Below, one piece after another: positions 15,491 to 28,802 of a stretch of 64,000 nucleotides of DNA (positions are counted from its first letter, which is position 1; every line of letters begins with the position of its first letter). Location: assembly GCA_963833985.1 (NCBI GenBank), contig CAWIAD010000002.1, positions 6,048,001 to 6,112,000 on the forward strand, read 5' to 3'. The translations under genes were made by a program, and so were the position numbers. A model generated the notes under the pieces. It saw nothing but the letters and a program-made list of their open reading frames with translations, did not search any database and was not told the origin of the DNA. Source of the stretch: an uncultured Planctomycetaceae bacterium (GTDB lineage: Bacteria > Planctomycetota > Planctomycetia > Isosphaerales > Isosphaeraceae).

Positions 15491-15919
15491 TCAGTCGAGC
15501 CAGTTCTCGACTCGCAAGCCTGGCACTCTCTCGAAATCGGCTCGGTTGGCGGACAGGAGAAGTGCGTGGTTGACCAGAGCCGTCGCCGCGATTCAGAGAT
15601 CCCTTGAGTCGATGCGAAGCTTCTGCGGGCGGAGATCATCAAATCGTCGGGCCGCTGCCTCATCGAACGGCACAATTTCGAACTCTTGGTAAAACTCGAA
15701 CAGCAAGGCCAGCTCGCGATAACCGGCGACTAGCCGAAGCGCCGTTTTCTCCTTGGCGATCACGGCCAGCCAGCCGCGCATCCGTTCCTCGACCGTGACA
15801 ATGGCCACACCTATGACTTCGGATGCCGGGACTGAATTGAGTCGATCGATCATTCGACGGCCGCGTTCACTGTCGGGGTATTTCAGGAACGTCGTATGGT
15901 CCGTGTCAAGGAGGATCAT
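15491..15919 (-). pseudogene. vapC: VapC (PIN) toxin interrupted by an in-frame TGA at 15593-15595
   Basis: MILLDTDH...VTVEERMRGWL...IVPFDEAAA...RDL*IAATALVNHALLLSANRADFERVPGLRVENWLD*. The canonical VapC C-terminus continues in frame after the stop. Confidence 0.85.
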
Positions 15920-16128
15920 TCGGCCAACTTTCCGCCCCGCGCCGCCTCCCGTTCGGCCTCACGGACGCGCATGCATTCCTCGTCGACCCTGCGCATGAAT
16001 TCGCTGTCGCGGAACATGCCGACCACATTGCGCCAATCTTTGCGGGAGCGGTCGACTTCCTTCGTCGCAATGACCTTCTCCAAGGCCTCGACTCGTTTGG
16101 CGAGGGATTCCAAGGTCAAGTCACTCAT
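15916..16128 (-). CDS. Probable antitoxin of the VapC pair
   Basis: 70 aa (MSDLTLESLAKRVEALEK...KDWRNVVGMF), GGAGGAG RBS, 4-bp overlap with the vapC start. Confidence 0.75.
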   Translation of the reverse strand: MSDLTLESLAKRVEALEKVIATKEVDRSRKDWRNVVGMFRDSEFMRRVDEECMRVREAEREAARGGKLAE

Positions 16129-16708
16129 TGCGTCTCCTCCAGACACTCAAACAGCCCCCCACAATCCTACTTTGCCAGGCTCACTTCTTGGAATGCGTCT
16201 TGGTGTGACTCCTCGCGCCTCCGATCCGGGTCCCGAGACTCAGCCGCTGCGCAGCAGGACGATGATGGCGTCCTTGACCGAAGGCGTCAGGCGGTGACGG
16301 TTCGCGACAAACTCCCGTAGTGCCGCGTCTTCGCGGACAGTGAGCAGTCAGCAGGGCGGACAGTTGACTCAACGACTATGATGCAAAACGACTTGTCAAA
16401 CGGCGACTTCGGCAGCAATTCCGGTGTCACTGAGCCGGTGAGGGGGGCTCCACGGCGGTGGACGGAAGAGAGAGTCAAGGGGTTGGATTGACGGACCAAG
16501 TGACGGGGACGCCCTTGCGCCTCGTCGTCCCGTTGGTGCCTCTTCGGCTGCGGTTTGTTTCGCAGGAACATTTCACGATTGAACGCTCTCGCATTCTGAA
16601 TTCTGGCTCGTGAGGGACCGGCCGAGAAGTGGCATAGCATCCGGTTGACCAGCTGCTTGATTCTCAAGCCTCCAGCCAGTCTCGTGGGCCGTCTGCCGAT
16701 CGTTCGTT

Positions 16709-16801
16709 TGTACCAGGAAGTGCCGCACGCCCTTGTGCGCTGTCACGCCCGCCGGGCGTCTTGCGTTGGTACAGAAACTGGTACAGGGCCATTTGGTAGA
16801 G
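16709..16801. repeat. Cluster of TGGTA(C/G)AG motifs (three direct, one inverted)
   Basis: TGGTACAG 16767-16774 and 16779-16786, TGGTAGAG 16794-16801, inverted TGTACCAG 16709-16716. Confidence 0.5.
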
Positions 16802-16969
16802 AAAATTAGCCGGACGCGCGCCGCTATGGACGCGACATAAAACTCGACCATCACAACACTTCAGCGGAGAGGACAGGACGCCAATTGAACTTTTTCTGGC
16901 CGGTGTCCGGGGCTGGGAAGCTGGTTTGCGGCGGCGGATGGATGACGGAAGGTCCAATTCGGATTGATG

Positions 16970-17992
16970 TTAGGGACGAAGACCGGAGTCGTTCTCAACG
17001 CCAAGCCGGTCCCACACATGAATCATCTGTGCTTGTTCAGCCGAAAGCCAATCAGCGACATCGTGTCCGTGACTCCTGCCACTACGATCCCAAATCCAGT
17101 AGGCATGAAGACCGATTGTATCCTCTGTTGGCAGAACCCTGTCGAGCCCCCAGGTGGAGAACAGCTTCCTTGAGCCCCGGTAGAGCCACGAGCACATGTC
17201 GGCCATGCTGCCACTGGTCTCGTTGGTGGCGAGTGCATCCGCGTAATGCAGGAGAGCAGCGTAGTCGGCATCCAGTTTCGTGTTGCGGAACTCTTTCCCC
17301 GGCGTGTCTTTCTCCCCGTACTTCAGCATGAACACGCACCAAAGGGCGAGGCTGCTCCGAGCGTGGTGGAAGGCGAACCATTCGGGGCCGAGTCCGTCCT
17401 CGGCCCCCTTGATGTACACGTCACTCGCTTCTTGGCGTCCATGCGCCAGTTGAATCCAGCGCTTTACCATCCGCTCTTGGTTTACCAGATCATCCATCTG
17501 GGGGCCGAGATTTTTCCCTTGACCCAGTTCCCGGCGAATCTGCCCGTAGGGGACGGAGCAGATTTCGCAGAACGTGCGGCACAAATGGACGAGTGCTTCA
17601 ACGGAATCCACCTCCCGTTGCTGGTAAGCGGGCCTCGTCAAAGACCGCAACTCGTCCGGTGCCTGCTCGCTGCGCTTGCCGAACCAGTACCTTGTCCGTT
17701 CGGTGAGAGACTTGTCGAAAGGCCCTCCCACGGGGGCTTTTGCCGTAAGCTCCTCTTTCAGCAATTCCCCGGTGTGCCGCCAGACCTCGATGGCATCGGC
17801 GAATTCCCACAGCTTGCGTTGAGCCTCGCTCCAGAGAGTGTCTCGGCTCCCGGTGCAGAGTTCGTAAACCAAGGTGTCCGTCAGGACGAAGGTGCAGCCG
17901 CACATGCGCAGCGCACGCAGCCTGCGGCACGACCTGCTTTCGGCTTGCAGGAAGCTCTTGTCGAGAATCACCTTGCGGCTGGTTTCGGCCAT
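16970..17992 (-). CDS. Hypothetical protein: PIN-like nuclease fold with a C-terminal DUF2934-like domain
   Basis: KVILDKSFL...FVLTDTLVYEL...LDADYAALLHYADALATNE acidic pattern; C-terminal EDTIGLHAYWIWDRSGRSHGHDVADWLSAE matches the DUF2934 pattern (AY..W...G...G....DW..AE). Confidence 0.6.
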   Translation of the reverse strand: MAETSRKVILDKSFLQAESRSCRRLRALRMCGCTFVLTDTLVYELCTGSRDTLWSEAQRKLWEFADAIEVWRHTGELLKEELTAKAPVGGPFDKSLTERTRYWFGKRSEQAPDELRSLTRPAYQQREVDSVEALVHLCRTFCEICSVPYGQIRRELGQGKNLGPQMDDLVNQERMVKRWIQLAHGRQEASDVYIKGAEDGLGPEWFAFHHARSSLALWCVFMLKYGEKDTPGKEFRNTKLDADYAALLHYADALATNETSGSMADMCSWLYRGSRKLFSTWGLDRVLPTEDTIGLHAYWIWDRSGRSHGHDVADWLSAEQAQMIHVWDRLGVENDSGLRP

Positions 17993-18108
17993 TCTTTCCT
18001 CAATAGTCCTCGCCGGTTGGTTCCGGCAAAGAGCTTTATCGGATCACGATCACGGAGACAGTAAGGCTGAAGTCCTTTGGCTGAGGTAGTTCATCACCCG
18101 TCATCCGG

Positions 18109-18441
18109 CTACTGGCCCTCGCTTTCGAGGAATGCCAGCACTCGGTCCAAACGCCGATCGTCCAGGTTGGCCATCTTGCGAAACACGTCGGGGCGCTGGA
18201 GGATGCGGTGACGGATGGCGTCGGGGATTTTTTCGGCGAGGAGCAGCAGCTCGTCGGGGTCCGCGTCCAGGGCGGTGGCCAGCTTGACAATCAGCTCGTT
18301 GCTGGGGAATTCGCCGAACGAGAGCTTCTGGTTCTCGATCTTGCTGAGGTAGGTAAACGTAACCCGCACCTTCTTCGCAACGTCCCGAAGGGTCAGATTC
18401 TTCGCCTGCCGTAGCTCGCGAATCCGCGTGCCGAAGATCAT
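18109..18441 (-). CDS. XRE-family HTH transcriptional regulator
   Basis: FGTRIRELRQAKNLTLRDVAKKVRVTFTYLSKIEN; AGGAGG RBS. Confidence 0.9.
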   Translation of the reverse strand: MIFGTRIRELRQAKNLTLRDVAKKVRVTFTYLSKIENQKLSFGEFPSNELIVKLATALDADPDELLLLAEKIPDAIRHRILQRPDVFRKMANLDDRRLDRVLAFLESEGQ

Positions 18442-18721: not shown

Positions 18722-20686
18722 ATGGGCGGCAAACTCCTCAAGACATTTTTGTCGACTGCGGTTTTAGTGTTCGTCTGCGGAACGCTCGTCGTGCTTTTGA
18801 CGCGAACGCCCACGGACGCCCGCAAAACCGGGGAGAAACCGAACGTCGCACCGGAGCCTACGCCAGTTACAGCCCCCGACCATATCCTACGTCTAACTGA
18901 AGCTGGCTGGGATCGCCGCGCCGCTGAGGCGGTCGTCGAGTTGAATAGGGAGTGGTTCACAATCCAGGCAGAAGAAAACGCTGCTGGTCTGGAACTTCAG
19001 CTTAAGCTACTGGACGGTTTAGGTCAGTATCCGACGCTGGCTCGCTTCATTTCACAGCATCCAGAAACAGCGGGGCTGCTGGCCGCTGCTGACGATCCTG
19101 AACTGATCGCAGCGGGACTTGATTCCGCCAACGAGAATTACGAGATCGTTGCCGGACTCTACGTGCAACACGCTGCGCCATCTGACGCTGTAGAGGTTGC
19201 CGAGGCGCTGAAGGCGAATAGTGAGCTGATTTGCACACTGCGCAGGCGGGGTCTGCTCGGTTGCGAAGTGCTGTTCATCTTTGACCGAAAGGACGTGGCT
19301 GCCGGGGAATACGAGACATGGCTTCGCGAGGTGATCCAAGCCAAATCCGCAGCATCCGACACTGAATTCGCGTCGTTCGTCAACCTTGCTATGCGCCACG
19401 GCCCTGCTCTCCGCGAACGGTTGAAGAAGAGTGCGAACTTCCGTCGCCACTTCCGGAATGAACTGTGGCCTCGACTGTCCCGAGTAGTCGAAGGCGAGCA
19501 AGGGATGTTCGAGCACTACCTCGACAAGGAACGCATCTGGGATTTGCTTGACCTCGAAAACGGGGAAGAGTTGCTGAAGCGATGTGGACTTCTGCCGATC
19601 GACCTACTCTATGGCTATCCGGAGATTGACCACCCGCCGTACCCGAAAACCCTGCATGACAAGATCGTGCAAGTGCTCCTGCGACGTGAGGACCGCACGA
19701 TTCATGCCCTCATGAAATTCCGCCGCGAGCCGCTGTTCCACAAGTTCATGCAGCGTGACCTATCGTCCGACACTTTTTCGGCTGCGCTGACACAGCTATT
19801 CAATGCCGGGCCGAATTCGCCCGACAAGCTGGCACTCTACGCGAGACTCGACGATACAGCCCTAGCAGATGAAGTCGGCCCGCCGACTTCAGGAATCGTC
19901 ACTTGGATACCGTTCTACTACACGGTCTACGAGGTCCCCAAAAAGCTGCTGCAGGGAAGAGACCCGACCGGTCTGGACTTGTTCTCGGCCGCGGTCGATC
20001 CCGTGTTCCTTGTGATCGACGTGTTTACGGGCGGGGGTACCGCGGCCGGCCGCAAAGCGCTGCTTGTTGGCGGTAAGGAAGCCACGGGTGCAGCGACTCG
20101 CAAGCTCGCGGAGAAGAGTGGAGAAAAGCTGCTTGTCACGACGCTGCGAGATACTGGCCTGGAACTCGCCCGCAAACAAGTCGGTAAAGAGGTCGCCGAA
20201 AAGATGGGTGAGAAAGAACTGATTAACTGGACGGTCACCGGAACGATGTCAGAGATGCAACAGGCGTTACGGACCACGATTGGCAAGGCGACGACGTTCG
20301 AGATTACCAGGCCCGTTCAATTTATGTTTCAGTACAGTCGAGTGGGCCGAGAAACTTGGAGACGCTTCACCGGAATGGAAGCAAGGCTTTTCATGCGAGG
20401 CGACGCTAAGGTTTATGTCCGGATCTCAAATCTGGCCGGGGCAGTCGTTGGAAGCCGCGGCGCCGCTTTTTTCGAGCGTACGGCACAGGATCTCGCTCTT
20501 GGCTCAGCGTTCGAAAGCAAACCCGGGAAAGATGTCCTGCATGAGGGTGTCAAACGTGTCATCTCAACCAAAGAGCAATTGCGATCATGGCAGCAGAACG
20601 CGTCGGCTTGGTGGCTTCTTAACGCAAGCCACAGTACCGCTCAAGCTGAACGGGAAGAGTTGCCACGACAAGGAGCGCAACAATGA
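18722..20686 (+). CDS. Operon gene A: hypothetical N-anchored membrane protein (654 aa)
   Basis: Long intact ORF in lower-GC DNA; N-terminal TM FLSTAVLVFVCGTLVVLL; stop overlaps the next ATG (ATGA). Confidence 0.85.
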   Translation: MGGKLLKTFLSTAVLVFVCGTLVVLLTRTPTDARKTGEKPNVAPEPTPVTAPDHILRLTEAGWDRRAAEAVVELNREWFTIQAEENAAGLELQLKLLDGLGQYPTLARFISQHPETAGLLAAADDPELIAAGLDSANENYEIVAGLYVQHAAPSDAVEVAEALKANSELICTLRRRGLLGCEVLFIFDRKDVAAGEYETWLREVIQAKSAASDTEFASFVNLAMRHGPALRERLKKSANFRRHFRNELWPRLSRVVEGEQGMFEHYLDKERIWDLLDLENGEELLKRCGLLPIDLLYGYPEIDHPPYPKTLHDKIVQVLLRREDRTIHALMKFRREPLFHKFMQRDLSSDTFSAALTQLFNAGPNSPDKLALYARLDDTALADEVGPPTSGIVTWIPFYYTVYEVPKKLLQGRDPTGLDLFSAAVDPVFLVIDVFTGGGTAAGRKALLVGGKEATGAATRKLAEKSGEKLLVTTLRDTGLELARKQVGKEVAEKMGEKELINWTVTGTMSEMQQALRTTIGKATTFEITRPVQFMFQYSRVGRETWRRFTGMEARLFMRGDAKVYVRISNLAGAVVGSRGAAFFERTAQDLALGSAFESKPGKDVLHEGVKRVISTKEQLRSWQQNASAWWLLNASHSTAQAEREELPRQGAQQ

Positions 20687-21732
20687 TCGTGAACTTTTAT
20701 CTGATGAATTCAATAAGCCGATTCCCTAAGACGGTCTACTGCCCAATTGTCGCAATCCTGCTCTCACTTGTCATTTCGTCGCAGGTGCTTGCTCAAGGCG
20801 TGCGGGGCGTCATGGACGACCTCGTGCGCGGCACAGCCCGAGTCGCAGATGACATCCCCGTGAAACGAATCGATGATCTCGTCGCAGAACTATCAAAGTC
20901 TCGCGCCGCACGCGAGGCGATTGATACCGAATTGCGAAAAGCGGGGCGGCTCACTGGAACCGGAGACGCCGTTCGTGGCACGGCCAGGTCTGACGAAGTG
21001 CTGCGGTTGCTGCGATCTGCAACGTCGGAGCTGGACCCGAATGTGATACGTCGCATCGAACAACTCGATGACGCTTCACGCGATGTGGCACTCGTACTTG
21101 CCAGGGGTGGCGAAGAATTCACGCGGACGCTCCCAGATCTCGCGACACGGGGCCGACTCTTGCGCGAAGGAGGTGCGGAAACAGTAGGGGCAGTGGGGAT
21201 GTTCGGCCCCGACGCCGCGCGAGCGGCATTGCGGTTGGACGAGGCTATCCGTGGCGGGTCAATCATCGTTAAGGATGGAACTCGCGCTGTCACCCTCGCA
21301 GACTTCGGGAACGTGATGACACGATCAGGCAACGCTTCGTGGCAATTCTGGAAGGAATTCGTTCAACCCCACTGGAAGATCTGGGCGGCCAGTGGCGCAC
21401 TGGCTGCTTATCTCGCGAATCCAGAGTACTTTCAAGACGCCGCCGGCCAACTTACAGAGGCCGGCTTCAAACATCTGACAGAGTTTGCCGGTGAGGTGGC
21501 GGCTGCGGCGATCCGTGGCGTCGGCCAGGGATCGGGAAACGCTGCAGAGAAGGTCACCAGCGCGGCGCAAGACACTTTCCTTCATGGAGACAAGTGGGCC
21601 TACGCAGTCGTCGGAACTCTAGTCTTTCTCGGTGGCGTTTCGCTGCTCTTTCGACGCGTGCGGTATTGGTTGTTCCGGCCCCTCCGCTGGTTGAACCAGA
21701 AGCCTGCGGATTCAAACACATCCAAAACGTGA
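20683..21732 (+). CDS. Operon gene B: hypothetical exported/membrane protein (349 aa)
   Basis: Signal-like IVAILLSLVISSQVLAQG; C-terminal TM WAYAVVGTLVFLGGVSLLF followed by a basic tail. Confidence 0.85.
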   Translation: MIVNFYLMNSISRFPKTVYCPIVAILLSLVISSQVLAQGVRGVMDDLVRGTARVADDIPVKRIDDLVAELSKSRAAREAIDTELRKAGRLTGTGDAVRGTARSDEVLRLLRSATSELDPNVIRRIEQLDDASRDVALVLARGGEEFTRTLPDLATRGRLLREGGAETVGAVGMFGPDAARAALRLDEAIRGGSIIVKDGTRAVTLADFGNVMTRSGNASWQFWKEFVQPHWKIWAASGALAAYLANPEYFQDAAGQLTEAGFKHLTEFAGEVAAAAIRGVGQGSGNAAEKVTSAAQDTFLHGDKWAYAVVGTLVFLGGVSLLFRRVRYWLFRPLRWLNQKPADSNTSKT

Positions 21733-21746
21733 TTTGGGAGATTGAT

Positions 21747-24335
21747 TTGACTGCAGATGTAGATTCTCCTGAACAGGTCTATCGCCTCGCGCTGTATGGT
21801 GTCCGGGCATCCGGAAAGACTTGCATACTGTCTGCACTCTCGCTGCCTCGCGTCGCTAACCCCAAAGGATTCTCGTGCTCCTGGATTGAGCAAGTTCCAG
21901 GGCATGCGTTCCCAACGGGTGACCCGACCACATGGACGACTGATGACCCGTTCCACGCCGGCTGGAAATGGCTCAACGAGCAACGGTGTCGCCTCAAGCG
22001 CGGCGAAATTCCTGCTCCAAACCCAAACCGCGAAGAGCCAATGCGGTTTCTGTTCGATTTCGGGTCACGCGACCACGGAACACGGCATATCGAACTGATC
22101 GATTATTCTGGGGAACTTGTCACCGCTTCTGCCAGTGAATTGGCCGCGAAGCTGCGTGACCACATGCAAGTCTGTGACGGACTCCTCGTCTTAGCGGAAG
22201 TGCCGTACCCTGGCAGAGATCACGCACCACTTGCTGACGATCTGGAGAAACTCAAGGGCGCGTTCTTATTGCTGCTGAACGGGCGTGACACCAGCCCAAG
22301 GCAAGACTGGCCGATCGCACTGCTCTTCAACAAGTGGGACCGTCGTGCCGATGCGGATTGCGACAGGCACGCCGAAGACCAGCAATTGATCGAAGAATTT
22401 CTCAATCAATCCCCTCCACCGCCGCAGTCGTCACTGATCGACACGATTACGAATGCCGTCAGTGACGATAATACTCGCTGCTTCCCAGTGAGCGCATTCG
22501 GCGCACACGAGATTCGAGGCGATGGACAAGAGGTTCCTCGACTCAATGGAACATCGCTGAAGTCACGAGGACTTGAGGACGGATTCGTTTGGGTCGCCGA
22601 TCGCTGTGATACAATCCGAGTGGAACGTCTCGAGGATGCTGCCAACGATACTTCCTGGTGGGCTTTCCCTCAGATCGTCTTCGGAAGGAAAGCCACAGCC
22701 GTTCGAACACTCGCATCCTCGTGGACCATGTGGTTTTGCGGTGTATCTGCGGCGTCCGCAATCTCAGCCGCCTGGCAACTTCGTCGACGTTTCCCGAAGA
22801 AAAGTCCTCTCCGCACTCGAACCATCGGAGCTTTGCGCAAGCTGTGGTGGAAATTCATCAGCCAGGTGGCCGTCTGCTTAATCGTACTGCTGGCGATTTT
22901 CTTCGGCATCGAGACCACTCTCGATGAAATCAATTATCGCGGCATTCTCGCAACTCGGGATGATCCGAGCGCAGAGGCCAAGCAACTGCAGCTTGGTGAA
23001 ACTTGGCTTGAGCACTATTTCGTCTCGCCGAGTTATCGACATTGGCTTTCATGCCAAACGATTCTTGACCGTTCGGATGCCCATAGTCTGCTCGTGCGAT
23101 TTCGAACACGGCGCGACGAAACTCTCTGGATGTCGGTTACCAATGCCGAGAATCCACACACACGACTGATCCTTGCCCGCAAGTACCTTGATGCGTTCCC
23201 GGCGGGATTGCACCAATCTGAAGCCCAGACAGTTGTCGCGGACGCTGATCGGCAGGAGATGCAGCACAAGAACGAAGAGTACCTGGCACAAATTGCGCTG
23301 AAGATCGACGCCATTTCGGCGAACGCAAATACACAGCTTGATGTCCTTCACAGTCTGAACGAGCAAGTGGGAACAATTCCACATCCCGAAGCGTCATCGA
23401 CATCGATTGAAACGCGCCAGGACGAGTTGAGAGGGCGCATTGCCCAGAAACAGACGGAAGTGGCCGAAGCCGTCAGACAAGCCGGCTGGGAGAAGTTCAA
23501 GCAGAGTTACTTCTCACTGATGCAGAACAAAAGTGTCGGCGATGCGGCGAGAGAGCTTGGATCTCGTGTTCCAAAGGACGCCGACTTACAGCTTCTCGTT
23601 GCGGACTTTACAAAACAAGCCCCGGCGATCATTCACGGGAAGGTGCAGGACGCACTAAAAAATCGCTCTTGGCAGATCGCCCGTGATTCTGCTCGATTGA
23701 TCACCAACCCGAATGTGGTGAAGCTACTTCCGGCGTCTTCCATCAAGGATCTTCAAAAGCTCGGAGAAGAGATTGACATCGCTGAAGATCGTGACCTTTA
23801 TGCTCAGATCAGGCGATACAAGCCGCAGTGCGGAGACCAGATTGATGCGTACCTCTCGCGAGCCCCTTTGAAGGCGATGAAAGTCGAAGTTGAGAAGTAC
23901 CGCCATTATGTTAATGCAATGAAAGAGCCCTTGGATCTGACACTCAGCCTGACCGCAATCCAATGGCACGACAAGTACTGGGCATGGCGCGTCAACTACT
24001 ACAATGACGTGACGGTTCAAGTCAGAGGAAAGCCATCGATCACGGCAACACGCGTACTGAGCAAGCCAAACACCCGAAGCGCCGATCTTGGCGATGGAAA
24101 GATAAATGCAGGCTTTAATGAGACCATTACCATCGATGTCTCAGTCGTGGCGAAATATGGATGGGTGGGCACGTCAACGATGTCCGGCGGTTCTGGAAGC
24201 TGGTCAGGCACCACAAATCAGCTTCGATCAGGAGTCACAATCGACCTCAACGGAGACGGATTCACGAACAAGGCCACGTTTTCGCTGACGGGGATTCCGC
24301 CCGAGCCACCACTGCCAGACTGGAAGATGCGATGA
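21747..24335 (+). CDS. Operon gene C: TRAFAC-class P-loop GTPase with a TM helix and a large C-terminal region
   Basis: G1 LYGVRASGKT, G3 LIDYSGE, G4 LLFNKWD, G5 FPVSAFG; TM QVAVCLIVLLAIFFGI. Probable TTG start at 21747 after GGGAG. Confidence 0.85.
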   Translation: MTADVDSPEQVYRLALYGVRASGKTCILSALSLPRVANPKGFSCSWIEQVPGHAFPTGDPTTWTTDDPFHAGWKWLNEQRCRLKRGEIPAPNPNREEPMRFLFDFGSRDHGTRHIELIDYSGELVTASASELAAKLRDHMQVCDGLLVLAEVPYPGRDHAPLADDLEKLKGAFLLLLNGRDTSPRQDWPIALLFNKWDRRADADCDRHAEDQQLIEEFLNQSPPPPQSSLIDTITNAVSDDNTRCFPVSAFGAHEIRGDGQEVPRLNGTSLKSRGLEDGFVWVADRCDTIRVERLEDAANDTSWWAFPQIVFGRKATAVRTLASSWTMWFCGVSAASAISAAWQLRRRFPKKSPLRTRTIGALRKLWWKFISQVAVCLIVLLAIFFGIETTLDEINYRGILATRDDPSAEAKQLQLGETWLEHYFVSPSYRHWLSCQTILDRSDAHSLLVRFRTRRDETLWMSVTNAENPHTRLILARKYLDAFPAGLHQSEAQTVVADADRQEMQHKNEEYLAQIALKIDAISANANTQLDVLHSLNEQVGTIPHPEASSTSIETRQDELRGRIAQKQTEVAEAVRQAGWEKFKQSYFSLMQNKSVGDAARELGSRVPKDADLQLLVADFTKQAPAIIHGKVQDALKNRSWQIARDSARLITNPNVVKLLPASSIKDLQKLGEEIDIAEDRDLYAQIRRYKPQCGDQIDAYLSRAPLKAMKVEVEKYRHYVNAMKEPLDLTLSLTAIQWHDKYWAWRVNYYNDVTVQVRGKPSITATRVLSKPNTRSADLGDGKINAGFNETITIDVSVVAKYGWVGTSTMSGGSGSWSGTTNQLRSGVTIDLNGDGFTNKATFSLTGIPPEPPLPDWKMR

Positions 24336-25876
24336 ACGGCCTTGCGCTCTTCGCTGAAACACCGCGGGCCGGGGAGTTGGGCCACCGCTTTCTTGTGCCC
24401 TTCAATCTTTCAGTTTCGGAGTCAGAGGTTGCCGAGTTCGTTCAAGTCGCTGACAGTGACCTTTCAGTTGGCGAGAACTTTGTTGCCATTGGGCGCAAGG
24501 TTCCCCAGCGTAGCGCCGCAGGCGCAATTCGAGAAGGCCGTGAGGTCGTGGTCTTGGCGGGCATCGATGTGACACGTGTCTCCGCGCACGACTTGGCCCG
24601 GATCGTGATGTCTCTTCAAGAGTGCCTGGACAAACTTGATCAACTCGTGAGCGGCGGACTCGACTGGAATTCCATTACAGCGGGGGAAGTGATAGTCCGG
24701 CGGAAGGAGTTGCGAGATTGGCTGGACGTTCTATCGACCGTTCCTATCTCAGTAACCGAATGGCGTAATGGCCCTCGCCACCTAAGCACCATGAGGGCGA
24801 CGCCTTCACAGCAACTGCACGCCCCCATTTTCATGGTAAAGTGGCGCACGAGCCTCCTGGCGTTGTTGGCGTTCGCATTGGGAATTGCTGGAGGCGTTTC
24901 CTTCGTTAAGTTCCACTTTCTTGGCAATGCGTTGACTCAACGTGACCAGACAACCACAAACGACGATATCGCCTCACCTTCAGACGAACCCAAGCGACGT
25001 CCAAAGTCGGCCCCGGGATCCACCGTTCCAATAAGTCGTCCAGGCGGCGTGTCTGTGGACAATGCTGATGTACTTCGAAAAGCAGTTCAGACCGGTAAGG
25101 TCGATGCACTCGTGGACATTCTCACTTTGCTGCCCAGCAATGGCAGCATCGCGGCGGAGGATTTCCACGCCTTGATCGAGTTTTCCACAGGGCTCGTGGA
25201 AAAGAGTCGTTTCGACGATGGCGTGCGGATCGTCACACAGCTAATCAGGCTTCAGGGCGCACAGTCGCTCGACCAGTCAGCGGTCGCTCGGATAGAGGAT
25301 TTGCAGAGGAAGGCAAGTGAGGGGTGCGAGTCGATCAACCAACAAGACCGCCGTCTGTATGAGTCTGTGCGTGAATCCACGGACGAGCAGCAAGTTGGCG
25401 CTGCACGGCGCTATCTCGAACGCGGACCACGGCAGTCCATGTCTCAGCCTGTCAAACGCTGGATCGAGTGGGCAGAAAAGACAGTTGATGCTGAGGTGGT
25501 CCGTGTAGACCTGCAAACAGACGTACCATTGACAATCAAGTTTGCGGCCAACAAGCGAGAGATCGGCTATAGACTGGAATCTGTTGACGTCATTGCGAAT
25601 TCGCGCCCGTTGGCATTTGTTATGACGCACATTGGAATTACGCGACAACGACTGCCGGCTTCCGTTCAGGTCATAGTCGAGGCTGATAACGCCGCTCACC
25701 TGCGAGCGCCCTCGCGTTTCGTGGGCGATTTTCAAATAGGGACACGGTCGAAAGGTGTCACTCAAGTATTGTTGCAATCGGCCGGAGTACCACGACAAAC
25801 GGGGGCGATTAGCATTCGATTTCCATTACTTCAAGACACTCCCGAACTGCCCGAATGGAAAGAGGTCTTGCCATGA
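24332..25876 (+). CDS. Operon gene D: hypothetical single-pass membrane protein
   Basis: ATG 24332 overlaps the gene C stop (ATGA); begins MNGLALFAETPRAGELGHRFL; TM SLLALLAFALGIAGGVSFV. Confidence 0.85.
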   Translation: MNGLALFAETPRAGELGHRFLVPFNLSVSESEVAEFVQVADSDLSVGENFVAIGRKVPQRSAAGAIREGREVVVLAGIDVTRVSAHDLARIVMSLQECLDKLDQLVSGGLDWNSITAGEVIVRRKELRDWLDVLSTVPISVTEWRNGPRHLSTMRATPSQQLHAPIFMVKWRTSLLALLAFALGIAGGVSFVKFHFLGNALTQRDQTTTNDDIASPSDEPKRRPKSAPGSTVPISRPGGVSVDNADVLRKAVQTGKVDALVDILTLLPSNGSIAAEDFHALIEFSTGLVEKSRFDDGVRIVTQLIRLQGAQSLDQSAVARIEDLQRKASEGCESINQQDRRLYESVRESTDEQQVGAARRYLERGPRQSMSQPVKRWIEWAEKTVDAEVVRVDLQTDVPLTIKFAANKREIGYRLESVDVIANSRPLAFVMTHIGITRQRLPASVQVIVEADNAAHLRAPSRFVGDFQIGTRSKGVTQVLLQSAGVPRQTGAISIRFPLLQDTPELPEWKEVLP

Positions 25877-27243
25877 CCGGGCTGGGCCTGATTGTCGAGA
25901 CGCCTCGCGGTGGGAATGCTGGGCATCGCTTCCTGACTTCCCGAAGCAACGCGGGTGAAAAAGAAGTCGCCAGCGCAGCGGCCTCCGCAAGTCAATCTGC
26001 GGTTGGGCGAGCGTATATCTCCGTTTCACGGCAGGTCATTCAGCGGCTTCAAAATGGCTCGGTTCGTGAAGGTGCCGAACGGATGATATTGCATGGTCTC
26101 GACGTTGACCAACTTCAGCCCGAGCAGATCGAACAGGTCAAAATAGAGTTGACCACGCTTCTCCTATCGCTCGACAGCCTAATTCAGTCAATCGAATGGC
26201 CGTCTGATAGCCAGTCAACTGTGATCTTTCGCGAAGAGCTACGGCAGTGGGTTGACCGCGAAGTGTTTCGACATTTGCCCCGCTCGCGCTTGACTGCTTC
26301 CAGTGGCGTCCAAGATTCTGTGCCGCCCTCTCGATCCCAGTGGAAATGGTTAATCATCGGCACCTGCACTCTGGCCAGTATTATAGTGCTTTCGTTGTTT
26401 CTTGGGCGTCACGGTGGCAAATCTGAAATCGGGACTAACCAGAAGCTGTCCCCCCCATTGATCCATAACGAATCGAGAGTTCGGGAATTGGCAAGCGAGT
26501 GGCAATGTACTCCCGAAGAGGCCCTGAGTTCACTGATGCGTGCGAGCAACTGGGACCGGCGACGAGAAGCTGACAGCCTGACCTTATCAGCCGGAATGAC
26601 CGACGGTGAGATTCTTGAAATCCTCAACAAGGTCGAAGCAAGCAAGGGTTCGGATCGGTTTTGCGTCTCGCCAAGCATTGAAGGCGTTGTTGATTTCCGC
26701 CGGTTTGTAGAGGAGAGTACCTCGCTATCTGCTGAAAAAATGAGACACCGCCGTAACTGGCTATATTCTACTTGGATGCAGTTTACAGTTCTTAAGCAGG
26801 CTGCTGAAAAAGTCCATGACGCTCTGATTCAAGTGGGGACTGAGGACGCGTTCTCGCGAATGCTCGTCTCCGTTGCGGAAGTCCAAACAGAAGTTGGCCT
26901 AGGGGATACTTTTCAGAAGCCGGTGACGCCGTTGCTTGAAAGGCAAGACTTGATGATCTTCCGACTGCTGGACGACGTGCGACAGAAATGTGCTGCAGCC
27001 GGGTTCGATCAGTTCGGCACCGAAGGAAGGGGCGGCATGGCCGCCGCAGGCGAGTTAGTGACGTTTGTTGCGGAGTTGCGAGTGCATCATGAATCGGTGC
27101 GTAACGCGCTTAGAATGAGTCGCGCGAGACTCACAGATTCAATTCGCGACAAGCAAGGTGCGAACAACGCGAGCGCGGTGTTTGAAGCTTACAAGTCTTT
27201 CGAGGAGTTCCTTGAGCAGCTTTTGAAGAATCCGAATCCTTAG
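25873..27243 (+). CDS. Operon gene E: hypothetical single-pass membrane protein, N-terminus paralogous to gene D
   Basis: ATG 25873 overlaps the gene D stop (ATGA); begins MTGLGLIVETPRGGNAGHRFL; TM WLIIGTCTLASIIVLSLFLG. Confidence 0.85.
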   Translation: MTGLGLIVETPRGGNAGHRFLTSRSNAGEKEVASAAASASQSAVGRAYISVSRQVIQRLQNGSVREGAERMILHGLDVDQLQPEQIEQVKIELTTLLLSLDSLIQSIEWPSDSQSTVIFREELRQWVDREVFRHLPRSRLTASSGVQDSVPPSRSQWKWLIIGTCTLASIIVLSLFLGRHGGKSEIGTNQKLSPPLIHNESRVRELASEWQCTPEEALSSLMRASNWDRRREADSLTLSAGMTDGEILEILNKVEASKGSDRFCVSPSIEGVVDFRRFVEESTSLSAEKMRHRRNWLYSTWMQFTVLKQAAEKVHDALIQVGTEDAFSRMLVSVAEVQTEVGLGDTFQKPVTPLLERQDLMIFRLLDDVRQKCAAAGFDQFGTEGRGGMAAAGELVTFVAELRVHHESVRNALRMSRARLTDSIRDKQGANNASAVFEAYKSFEEFLEQLLKNPNP

Positions 27244-27873: not shown

Positions 27874-28500
27874 TTACGGCAAGCTCGGCTCGCGATCTTG
27901 CCGTTGGCGTTCCATCGCAATTCGCTCCTGAAACGTCATCGGCTGCCCAGCAGTTAAATCATCCCCGGCTGCCGGCGGCGGCTGGAGAACTGATGGTTCC
28001 GGCGAAACATCGCCTTCGACAGGGTGATCCGATGCGAAATTCGCTTCCTGCCGCTTGCGTATGCGAGCGGTGATCGGTTCCTCGGCCGTTGCTTGCTTCG
28101 ACTGAACTCGCTGTGGCGTGGCTTCTATTGTGTTGGCGGCTTTCAGTGCCTTGACCCTCTCGGCCAGTTCCGAAACGGTCGGACCGTCTTCGTTGCTTGC
28201 TTCATGAGCCGTGGCGGATAGACCGGCCTTGAGCTGGTCGCGCAGGCTGGTGAATTCGGATAGGTAGGCGTCGTGTGCGAATGGCTTGCCCAAACGCTCG
28301 CGGTAATCACGCAGCTGCGATTCGGCGATGGCCAGGTCCTGCCGGACGCGCACTCACTCGGAGCCGTAGCCAGTGACCAGGCGTTCGAGGGCGTTCAGCA
28401 CGGCACGCGGCCCCTGGTGGTCGCGCGACAGCGTGGACAGGCGTGTGATCGCGCCTTCCAGAAACACGTCCGGCGGGAATTTGCGGGTGCAGGATCAGGT
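27874..28500 (-). pseudogene. C-terminal relic of a large mobile-element DNA methylase/SNF2-helicase (DarB-like) gene
   Basis: LILHPQ/FPPDVFLEGAITRLSTLSRDHQGPRAVLNALERL...SE*VRVRQDLAIAESQLRDYRERLGKPFAHDAYL has a frameshift, an in-frame TGA (28354-28356) and no 5' part. The family call is from recall of the KPF..E.EL-type tail. Confidence 0.5.
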
Positions 28501-28703: not shown

Positions 28704-28713
28704 TAAAAACAAG

Positions 28714-28802
28714 CGGAGAGGGTGGGATTCGAACCCACGTCGCAGCTTTCGCCACGAACGGCATTTCCAGTGCCGCACCTTCGGCCTCTCGGTCACCTCT
28801 CC
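28714..28802 (-). tRNA. tRNA-Ser(GGA)
   Basis: GGAGAGG acceptor stem, anticodon arm CGGCA-CTGGAAA-TGCCG, long variable arm, GGTTCGAATCC T-loop, discriminator G. CCA is not encoded. Confidence 0.97.

Follow-up and report, generated by a model that had tools for sequence, protein, structure and literature searches.

In the 64,000-nucleotide stretch of an uncultured Planctomycetaceae bacterium analyzed here (contig CAWIAD010000002.1, positions 6,048,001 to 6,112,000; hereafter the window), five genes, A-B-C-D-E, form a run in which stops and starts overlap. The last two, D and E, joined by an ATGA overlap, begin with one and the same domain, and stand downstream of gene C, which encodes a DO-GTPase-like protein. 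We propose that this domain, for which a longin fold is predicted, is probably a membrane-anchored GTPase-activating protein (GAP) of GTPase C that acts through an arginine finger, the tails behind its anchor setting when both proteins meet.

An earlier note on this DNA, made from the letters, had read D and E as sharing a paralogous N-terminal domain of about 130 amino acids (aa) over 24332..26270, each copy followed by one transmembrane (TM) helix and then by unrelated C-termini. The pairwise alignment bears out the paralogy. D (24332-25876, + strand, 514 aa) and E (25873-27243, + strand, 456 aa) align by BLASTP over D1-190/E1-184 with 68/200 identities (34%; 69.3 bits, E=6e-17), the motifs quoted in the note are present, and nothing significant was found past the aligned N-terminal part, the tails being mutually unrelated. 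The domain is thus real, but its extent had been drawn slightly short: it measures about 135-140 aa (aa 1-140 in both; D, 24332..24751; E, 25873..26292), the E copy reaching about 26292. In both proteins, hydropathy places one hydrophobic helix after it (D aa 174-192, 24851..24907; E aa 160-178, 26350..26406), also as the note had it, and basic residues precede this helix, which suggests that the domain is cytoplasmic, at the inner face of the membrane. Searching the window's genome with a hidden Markov model (HMM) of the domain returned only the D and E copies at E<=0.05.

The conservation of the domain was followed in 152 aligned domains, drawn from the profile search described below and from earlier matches. 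The best-conserved columns are, in D numbering, T10, P11, H18, G47, Q59, R67, E71, L75, G77, L95, W112 and W130. The column of R67 (24530..24532) holds Arg in 93% of the sequences, and an Arg stands 3-6 residues ahead of E71 in 151/152. Its counterpart in E, R65 (26065..26067), is invariant in 11 aligned sequences and kept in 61/62 E-type proteins. H18, in the GHRF motif (24383..24385), is conserved at 89%, and Arg, His and Gln are all kept in both copies.

The E domain was modeled with AlphaFold2 from 19 sequences (pLDDT 91.3, pTM 0.86). The model contains, with E for strands and H for helices, E5-10, E19-22, H29-41, a one-residue bridge at 44, E48-58, E64-74, H83-106, E117-119 and H121-127. 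Compared with 48,161 chains by VIA-align, it finds first the Lokiarchaeal longin 8yqg (Z 9.2, root-mean-square deviation (rmsd) 3.6, 117 aligned, residues 1-136), then FNIP2 (7.3), Lst4 (7.0), GATOR1 (6.8), FLCN (6.5) and DENND1A (6.3), with the signal recognition particle (SRP) receptor, Vamp7, TRAPP and Mon1-Ccz1 also within Z 5.3-7.3, a range for which the program warns that values under 8 can reflect a common arrangement. The untitled chains in this list we take to be longins as well. Because the list of matches is uniform and the whole domain is covered, a longin fold is predicted for the E domain and, through the paralogous model, for that of D. In the Foldseek search with the E model, the sole listed row with a TMq above 0.3 is the same Lokiarchaeal longin (0.45); the top rows by Foldseek, CutA and PAS/LOV, were set aside for their low TM-scores. 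In the model, R65 lies at the turn into the last hairpin strand (E64-74), at its start and before the long helix. By strand order, R65 and R67 thus occupy the place of the finger in longin GAPs, between beta4 and beta5. SMCR8 R147 and FLCN R164 stand in the betaL4-betaL5 loop (10.1101/2020.04.16.045708), and GAPs of the Avl9 type carry an arginine finger in the beta4-beta5 loop (10.64898/2026.01.05.697756).

Co-folding the GTPase domain of C (21768-22628, residues numbered from 21768) with D 1-140, GTP and Mg gave a score of 0.86, the best control reaching 0.00. The runs share at least 97% of their contacts, and the pLDDT of the partner is at least 85. In the predicted complex, D lies over the P-loop (13-14), switch I (81-89) and switch II (114-126) of the GTPase; P82, S114, E116, L117, A126 and E255, on the GTPase face of the interface, are invariant, and the face on D includes P11, H18, R19, Q59, R67 and G69. 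R67 pairs with residue 14 of the P-loop and with 82 and 84 of switch I; H18 pairs with 84, 86 and 87 in switch I and with S114 and E116 in switch II; Q59 pairs with 84. Conservation and predicted contacts together make R67 the candidate finger, with R65 as its counterpart in E. The earlier note had regarded the conserved arginines in general as finger candidates. This stands for the Arg of the REG motif (R67/R65) but not for Arg12 of the ETPR motif, which is disfavored by its lower conservation (83%, with Asn in 8%, a subgroup) and is absent from the listed interface.

We then turn to the gene neighborhood, in which the GTPase accompanies the domain. One genome locus and 32 metagenome loci from a motif scan were annotated with HMMs; four of the latter (L028, L040, L047, L052), in which no domain was found by HMM, were left out before counting, and clustering the 29 remaining loci and the window at 85% identity gave 20 clusters. 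This sample is biased, since the motif scan reaches 73/152 of the family, or about half. A GTPase gene lies directly upstream of the domain gene in 15 of the 20 distinct loci, mostly with overlapping stop and start, and a cut tail of GTPase type is found there in three more (two by HMM, L045 by eye), giving 18/20. The GTPase proposed as the partner by the earlier note is thereby supported on two sides, the gene order and the co-fold, and loci lacking such a neighbor are the minority in this sample. Orphan copies of the domain were seen at L042:3891-4955 and L053:2819-3241, the latter ending without a TM helix.

The same loci show what is constant in the system. Two copies of the domain occur in 7/20 clusters, all seven of which have gene B, and a single copy in 13/20, some of them cut by contig ends. 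In seven loci (L038, L039, L043, L044, L045, L048, L029), the domain gene consists of the domain and the TM helix only, at about 170-190 aa. The E tail (26407..27243), which has no family match, has its like in other loci as separate, TM-anchored genes (L029, L031, L051, L056). The tails are dispensable, since many loci carry a single domain-plus-TM gene; and because tail-less domain genes and stand-alone E-type tails both occur, the conserved unit is the GTPase with the membrane-anchored domain, the tails being exchangeable.

The GTPase itself is encoded by gene C (21729..24335, + strand; start codon inferred from the overlap with B), with a TM helix near aa 376 and a long tail. Its domain shows GxxxSGKT, PxPN, DYSGE, NKWD and SAxG, and 16 C domains keep these motifs, the second as PxxN. 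DYSGE is invariant (16/16), so that the Glu after Walker B, a trait of the DO-GTPases among TRAFAC GTPases, is present. DO-GTPase2 and DO-GTPase1 are the closest Pfam families: at E<=1, PF19975 (DO-GTPase1) and PF19993 (DO-GTPase2) match 13 and 9 of the 16 members, with best E of 6e-4 and 2.5e-5; the window's C reaches 11.7 bits against a curated cut-off of 27. When C is aligned with a DO-GTPase-type protein of the window's genome, the G2 Thr of the latter falls on N85, an invariant residue of C.

From these data, we propose the following mechanism. A longin-fold domain held at the inner face of the membrane would act as the GAP of the GTPase encoded upstream. The D domain is predicted to bind over the P-loop and both switches, with R67 at the P-loop and H18 on Glu116 of switch II; R67, or R65 in E, would reach the phosphates and speed GTP hydrolysis. 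By this way, the domain would reset or hold off a GTPase switch at the membrane, and the variable tails would control the meeting of GTPase and GAP. D may pair with C through related tails, and E would be a second copy of the GAP that carries another tail. Least certain is the last step, in which protein A would be gated by the switch, within a DO-GTPase-like mobile conflict or envelope-stress system; we infer this role from the analogy with DO-GTPases and from the patchy, island-like location.

Several points weigh against this proposal. In the model, a full beta3 of the longin order beta-beta-alpha-beta-beta-beta-alpha-alpha is not formed; just one VIA-align Z exceeds 8, and Foldseek returned nothing at E<=0.001 for the E model or for that of GAP1-N2. 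The equivalence of the Arg with the FLCN/SMCR8 finger is drawn from strand order. Moreover, the GP motif ahead of beta2, typical of eukaryotic GAP longins (PMC12290439), is replaced in the family by G (59%) or N (36%) followed by H (89%). As for the co-fold, its pass mark was reached by 116/157 solved complexes and 2/215 mismatched pairs, counts that are only rough for a job containing ligands; its contacts are pairs of protein residues, those with GTP not being reported; the interface columns are not better conserved than the rest (p=0.42); and the pass may stem from likeness to solved longin-GTPase complexes. GTPase C may hydrolyze poorly or differently, because Asn replaces the G2 Thr. Finally, no GTPase was found within 3.9 and 2.8 kb upstream of the domain in L042 and L053, respectively, and no longin-type gene adjoins a second, related A-B-GTPase locus in the window's genome (L057), which argues against an obligate link.

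Among the roles that the earlier note had considered, adaptor, GAP or GEF (guanine nucleotide exchange factor), we favor the GAP. A longin can also be a non-catalytic effector or platform, as is SRX, which reads the GTP state of SRbeta. The domain could likewise read the GTP state of C, its Arg being a binding residue, and the same fold, context and co-fold evidence fits this; the Thr-to-Asn change at G2, the absence of the GP motif, and an SRP-receptor chain among the top fold matches (Z 6.8, counted there as tied for second place in VIA-align) speak for it. We nevertheless regard it as unlikely, as a near-invariant Arg at the finger place touches the P-loop in the model and an invariant Arg occupies this place in GAP1-N2 too. 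Mon1-Ccz1, TRAPP and DENND1 are also found among the fold matches (Z 5.3-6.3), and exchange is the more usual role of longins (PMC12290439). However, the co-fold is confident with GTP and Mg and puts the Arg hairpin at the P-loop, and an Arg between beta4 and beta5 is what tells GAPs from GEFs in the Avl9 preprint (10.64898/2026.01.05.697756), which makes an exchange factor very unlikely.

In loci with two copies, D and E could form an obligate longin heterodimer, of which one member holds the GTPase and the other gives the Arg, like the eukaryotic longin GAPs C9orf72-SMCR8 and FLCN-FNIP; 7 loci retain both copies, each as an old lineage of its own. Yet Arg, His and Gln are retained in both, 13 of the 20 loci have one copy (with the reservation on contig ends made above), and D alone gives a confident complex, so that we hold this division of labor to be quite unlikely. 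The domain might even not act on GTPase C at all, their gene order reflecting common membership of a membrane complex. The two loci without an upstream GTPase and the L057 GTPase without a domain would agree with this, but it is hardly credible in view of the co-fold (0.86 against 0.00) and of the gene order in 18/20 loci. The membrane-anchored GAP therefore stays our preferred reading, the one we think probable.

The domain belongs to a family without a name, as the earlier note had supposed. D and E have no significant match in Pfam, NCBIfam or PADLOC, nor does the domain in 94 homologues (E<=0.001). A profile built from 19 relatives of D and E, which also contained tail positions, was run against 1.84 billion representatives and hit 355 clusters (E<=0.001); in the best 150 of these, which were listed, a few match via the tail only. 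With a single exception, the proteins have the start of the domain among their first 30 residues, and 104/106 long members carry a TM helix behind it. The source names include Planctomycetota, Pirellulales, Pseudomonadota and Candidatus Parabeggiatoa. In 400 other genomes sampled from the window's phylum, no match was obtained with protein or alignment; the system is hence rare and patchy. Plasmids and viral contigs gave no match, a first metagenome scan confirmed 0/176 candidates, the ESM Atlas returned no usable match, and the best hit of a sequence search of the PDB (E 0.0068 across 41 positions) is not convincing. The literature search found no paper describing the family, the source-data supplements of PMC7159879, which could list these loci, lying outside it, and none calling GAP1-N a longin. 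A 2026 preprint makes the general remark, citing unpublished observations, that in conflict systems TRAFAC GTPases are often accompanied by profilin-longin-like domains (10.64898/2026.10.19.760177).

The history of the two copies was examined in trees. With 174 domains, six two-copy loci have their first copies united in one clade (support 95) and their second copies in another group (support 89), tail types being mixed across clades. A smaller tree, built with care, is weak at its deeper branches but rejects a sister grouping of the window's D and E (p-AU 1.2e-8), which rules out a recent, locus-specific duplication. Since first and second copies fall in separate clades and the D+E grouping is rejected, the duplication is old, as judged from these sequence trees. 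The idea of a module duplicated onto different tails thus holds for the two copies and their unrelated tails; the duplication is, however, ancient, and single-copy and tail-less loci do without it. The D tail (24923..25876), likely extracytoplasmic and ending with PELPEW, is likely related to that of GTPase C. A profile of 22 D-type tails matches the C tail at E=4e-16, a result that is partly circular because the D tail class was drawn by single linkage including C's own tail; one D-type protein matches it directly (E=8e-12), and the window's D at E=0.026 only, with a common terminal PxLPxW. In L005, the D gene (L005:9249-10004) has lost about 790 bp from its interior without a change of frame. 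The junction, at a short AREG stretch common to both sides, connects the window-equivalent positions 196 and 981, so that the TM helix and the last part of the domain are missing.

The remaining genes of the operon have no known family. Gene A (18722..20686, + strand), the first, encodes a TM-anchored protein, without a Pfam match in 8 relatives; its C-terminal segment (IPFYYTVYEV...GRDPTG) presumably resembles pre-toxin TG motifs, and A is a candidate effector. Gene B (20683..21732, + strand) has two hydrophobic segments. The stretch that holds the operon has a GC content of 54-58%, against about 64% in the window, and a tRNA-Ser gene (28713..28802, - strand) lies at its edge; a search near the operon for a repeat of the tRNA-Ser end, as an attachment site would show, found none. 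The flanks (15593-18441 and 27874-28353) include a DUF2934-containing open reading frame, and others that we assume to resemble PIN, a small helix-turn-helix protein on the divergent side of A, and a helicase C-terminal remnant. They are consistent with a decayed island. The second A-B-GTPase operon of the window's genome lies at a distance (L057:9754-16004, G000:C2, minus strand); its GTPase passes the DO-GTPase2 cut-off and has a TM-like segment and a long tail. Elsewhere, E is followed in L005 (L005:11552-15183) by a pair of co-directional GTPase genes, dynamin-like or MMR_HSR1, whose ends are hydrophobic; the other loci examined show no such pair. After the operon, four low-GC loci carry a conserved gene of about 180 aa with a WTTAADFDLAA motif (L031:8525-9064, L038:6683-7237, L051:801-1580, L056:9498-10037); the motif part has no Pfam match, and the gene, we assume, resembles TerD.

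Kaur et al. 2020 (PMC7159879), whose main text contains neither longin nor DENN, defined DO-GTPases together with a GAP1 of three domains encoded downstream. Our system is like theirs in its TRAFAC GTPase with the Glu after the Walker B DxxG, its partner gene directly downstream, its TM anchors and its patchy spread. It differs in that C stays below the DO-GTPase cut-offs and carries Asn in place of the G2 Thr, that genes A and B belong to no known family, that a TM helix comes directly after the domain, and that Pfam finds no match to GAP1-N1, N2, M or C, nor any GAP1-M/C, GASH or FNIII partner in genes A-E or the scanned neighbors. The GAP1-N1 and GAP1-N2 profiles (PF20012, PF20013) match neither D nor E at E<=1, nor the 19 aligned members (E<=0.1) or 94 homologues (E<=0.001), and PF20013 matches only another locus in the window's genome. 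No GAP1-N1 member was collected from 151 genomes. GAP1-N2 was aligned from 15 sequences, four of them weak matches, and membership in it by sequence was rejected, the profile-profile comparison (E=0.14-0.16; global mode, E=0.74) staying inside column-shuffled controls. The comparison with GAP1-N proposed in the earlier note thus failed at the level of sequence but gave a match at the level of fold: the GAP1-N2 model (pLDDT 86) also has 8yqg as its top match (Z 8.1, rmsd 3.8, 118 aligned), and here the invariant R90 stands ahead of the last strand. Both models, each placed separately, have an Arg where the last sheet strand begins or immediately before it. On these models, the D/E domain is likely a third GAP1-N-like type. 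In L058 (L058:6319-7920), a DO-GTPase-type gene is followed by a stand-alone 220-aa GAP1-N2 gene, a minimal pair with chemotaxis-like genes upstream.

Descriptions of arginine-finger longins exist for GAP complexes of eukaryotes and for Asgard archaea (PMC12290439). We give about even chances to the wider view that bacteria own a family of membrane-anchored longin GAPs, encoded beside their GTPase and bearing a beta4-beta5 finger like that of FLCN, NPRL2, SMCR8 and Avl9, that GAP1-N2 is of the same class, and that DO-GTPase systems are longin GAP-GTPase switches. If true, longin arginine-finger catalysis would extend beyond eukaryotes and Asgard archaea. With its roughly 140 aa, tied to the membrane beside its own GTPase, the bacterial family would offer a two-protein test of whether a single longin can be a GAP and of the age of the mechanism. 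GAP1-N2 would gain a predicted fold and a candidate catalytic residue, and therefore DO-GTPase conflict systems a testable switch mechanism.

Eukaryotic longin GAPs switch off Rag and Arf GTPases. With FLCN-FNIP2, NPRL2-NPRL3 (GATOR1) and SMCR8-C9orf72, the D/E domain has in common the longin fold (Z 4.6-7.3, at 6-12% identity in the structural alignments), the Arg at the last hairpin and the binding over the switch regions, here predicted. Unlike them, it has no DENN module (a TM helix stands instead, and there are tail-less members), G/N-H for GP and no full beta3 in the model; it is membrane-anchored and keeps the Arg in both paralogues. MglA supplies its own Arg, and MglB is a roadblock protein, circularly permuted with respect to longins, roadblock matches being lower here (Z about 5.2). 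The MglA-MglB pair is nonetheless similar as a bacterial small GTPase with an adjacent GAP of related, profilin-like fold (PMC3521125). Like the monomeric DENN GAPs Avl9 and DENND6A (10.64898/2026.01.05.697756), the domain would be one longin whose Arg finger sits between beta4 and beta5; the cDENN binds the switches there, whereas the longin alone is predicted to do so here. The Asgard longins (8yqg; FLCN/SMCR8-type, PMC12290439) are its best fold match and are prokaryotic; in contrast to them, it is bacterial, TM-anchored and paired with a DO-GTPase-like protein, not one of Rag or Arf type. In its working, the D/E domain would resemble both GAP1-N and the longin GAPs, but by their defining features it belongs to neither.

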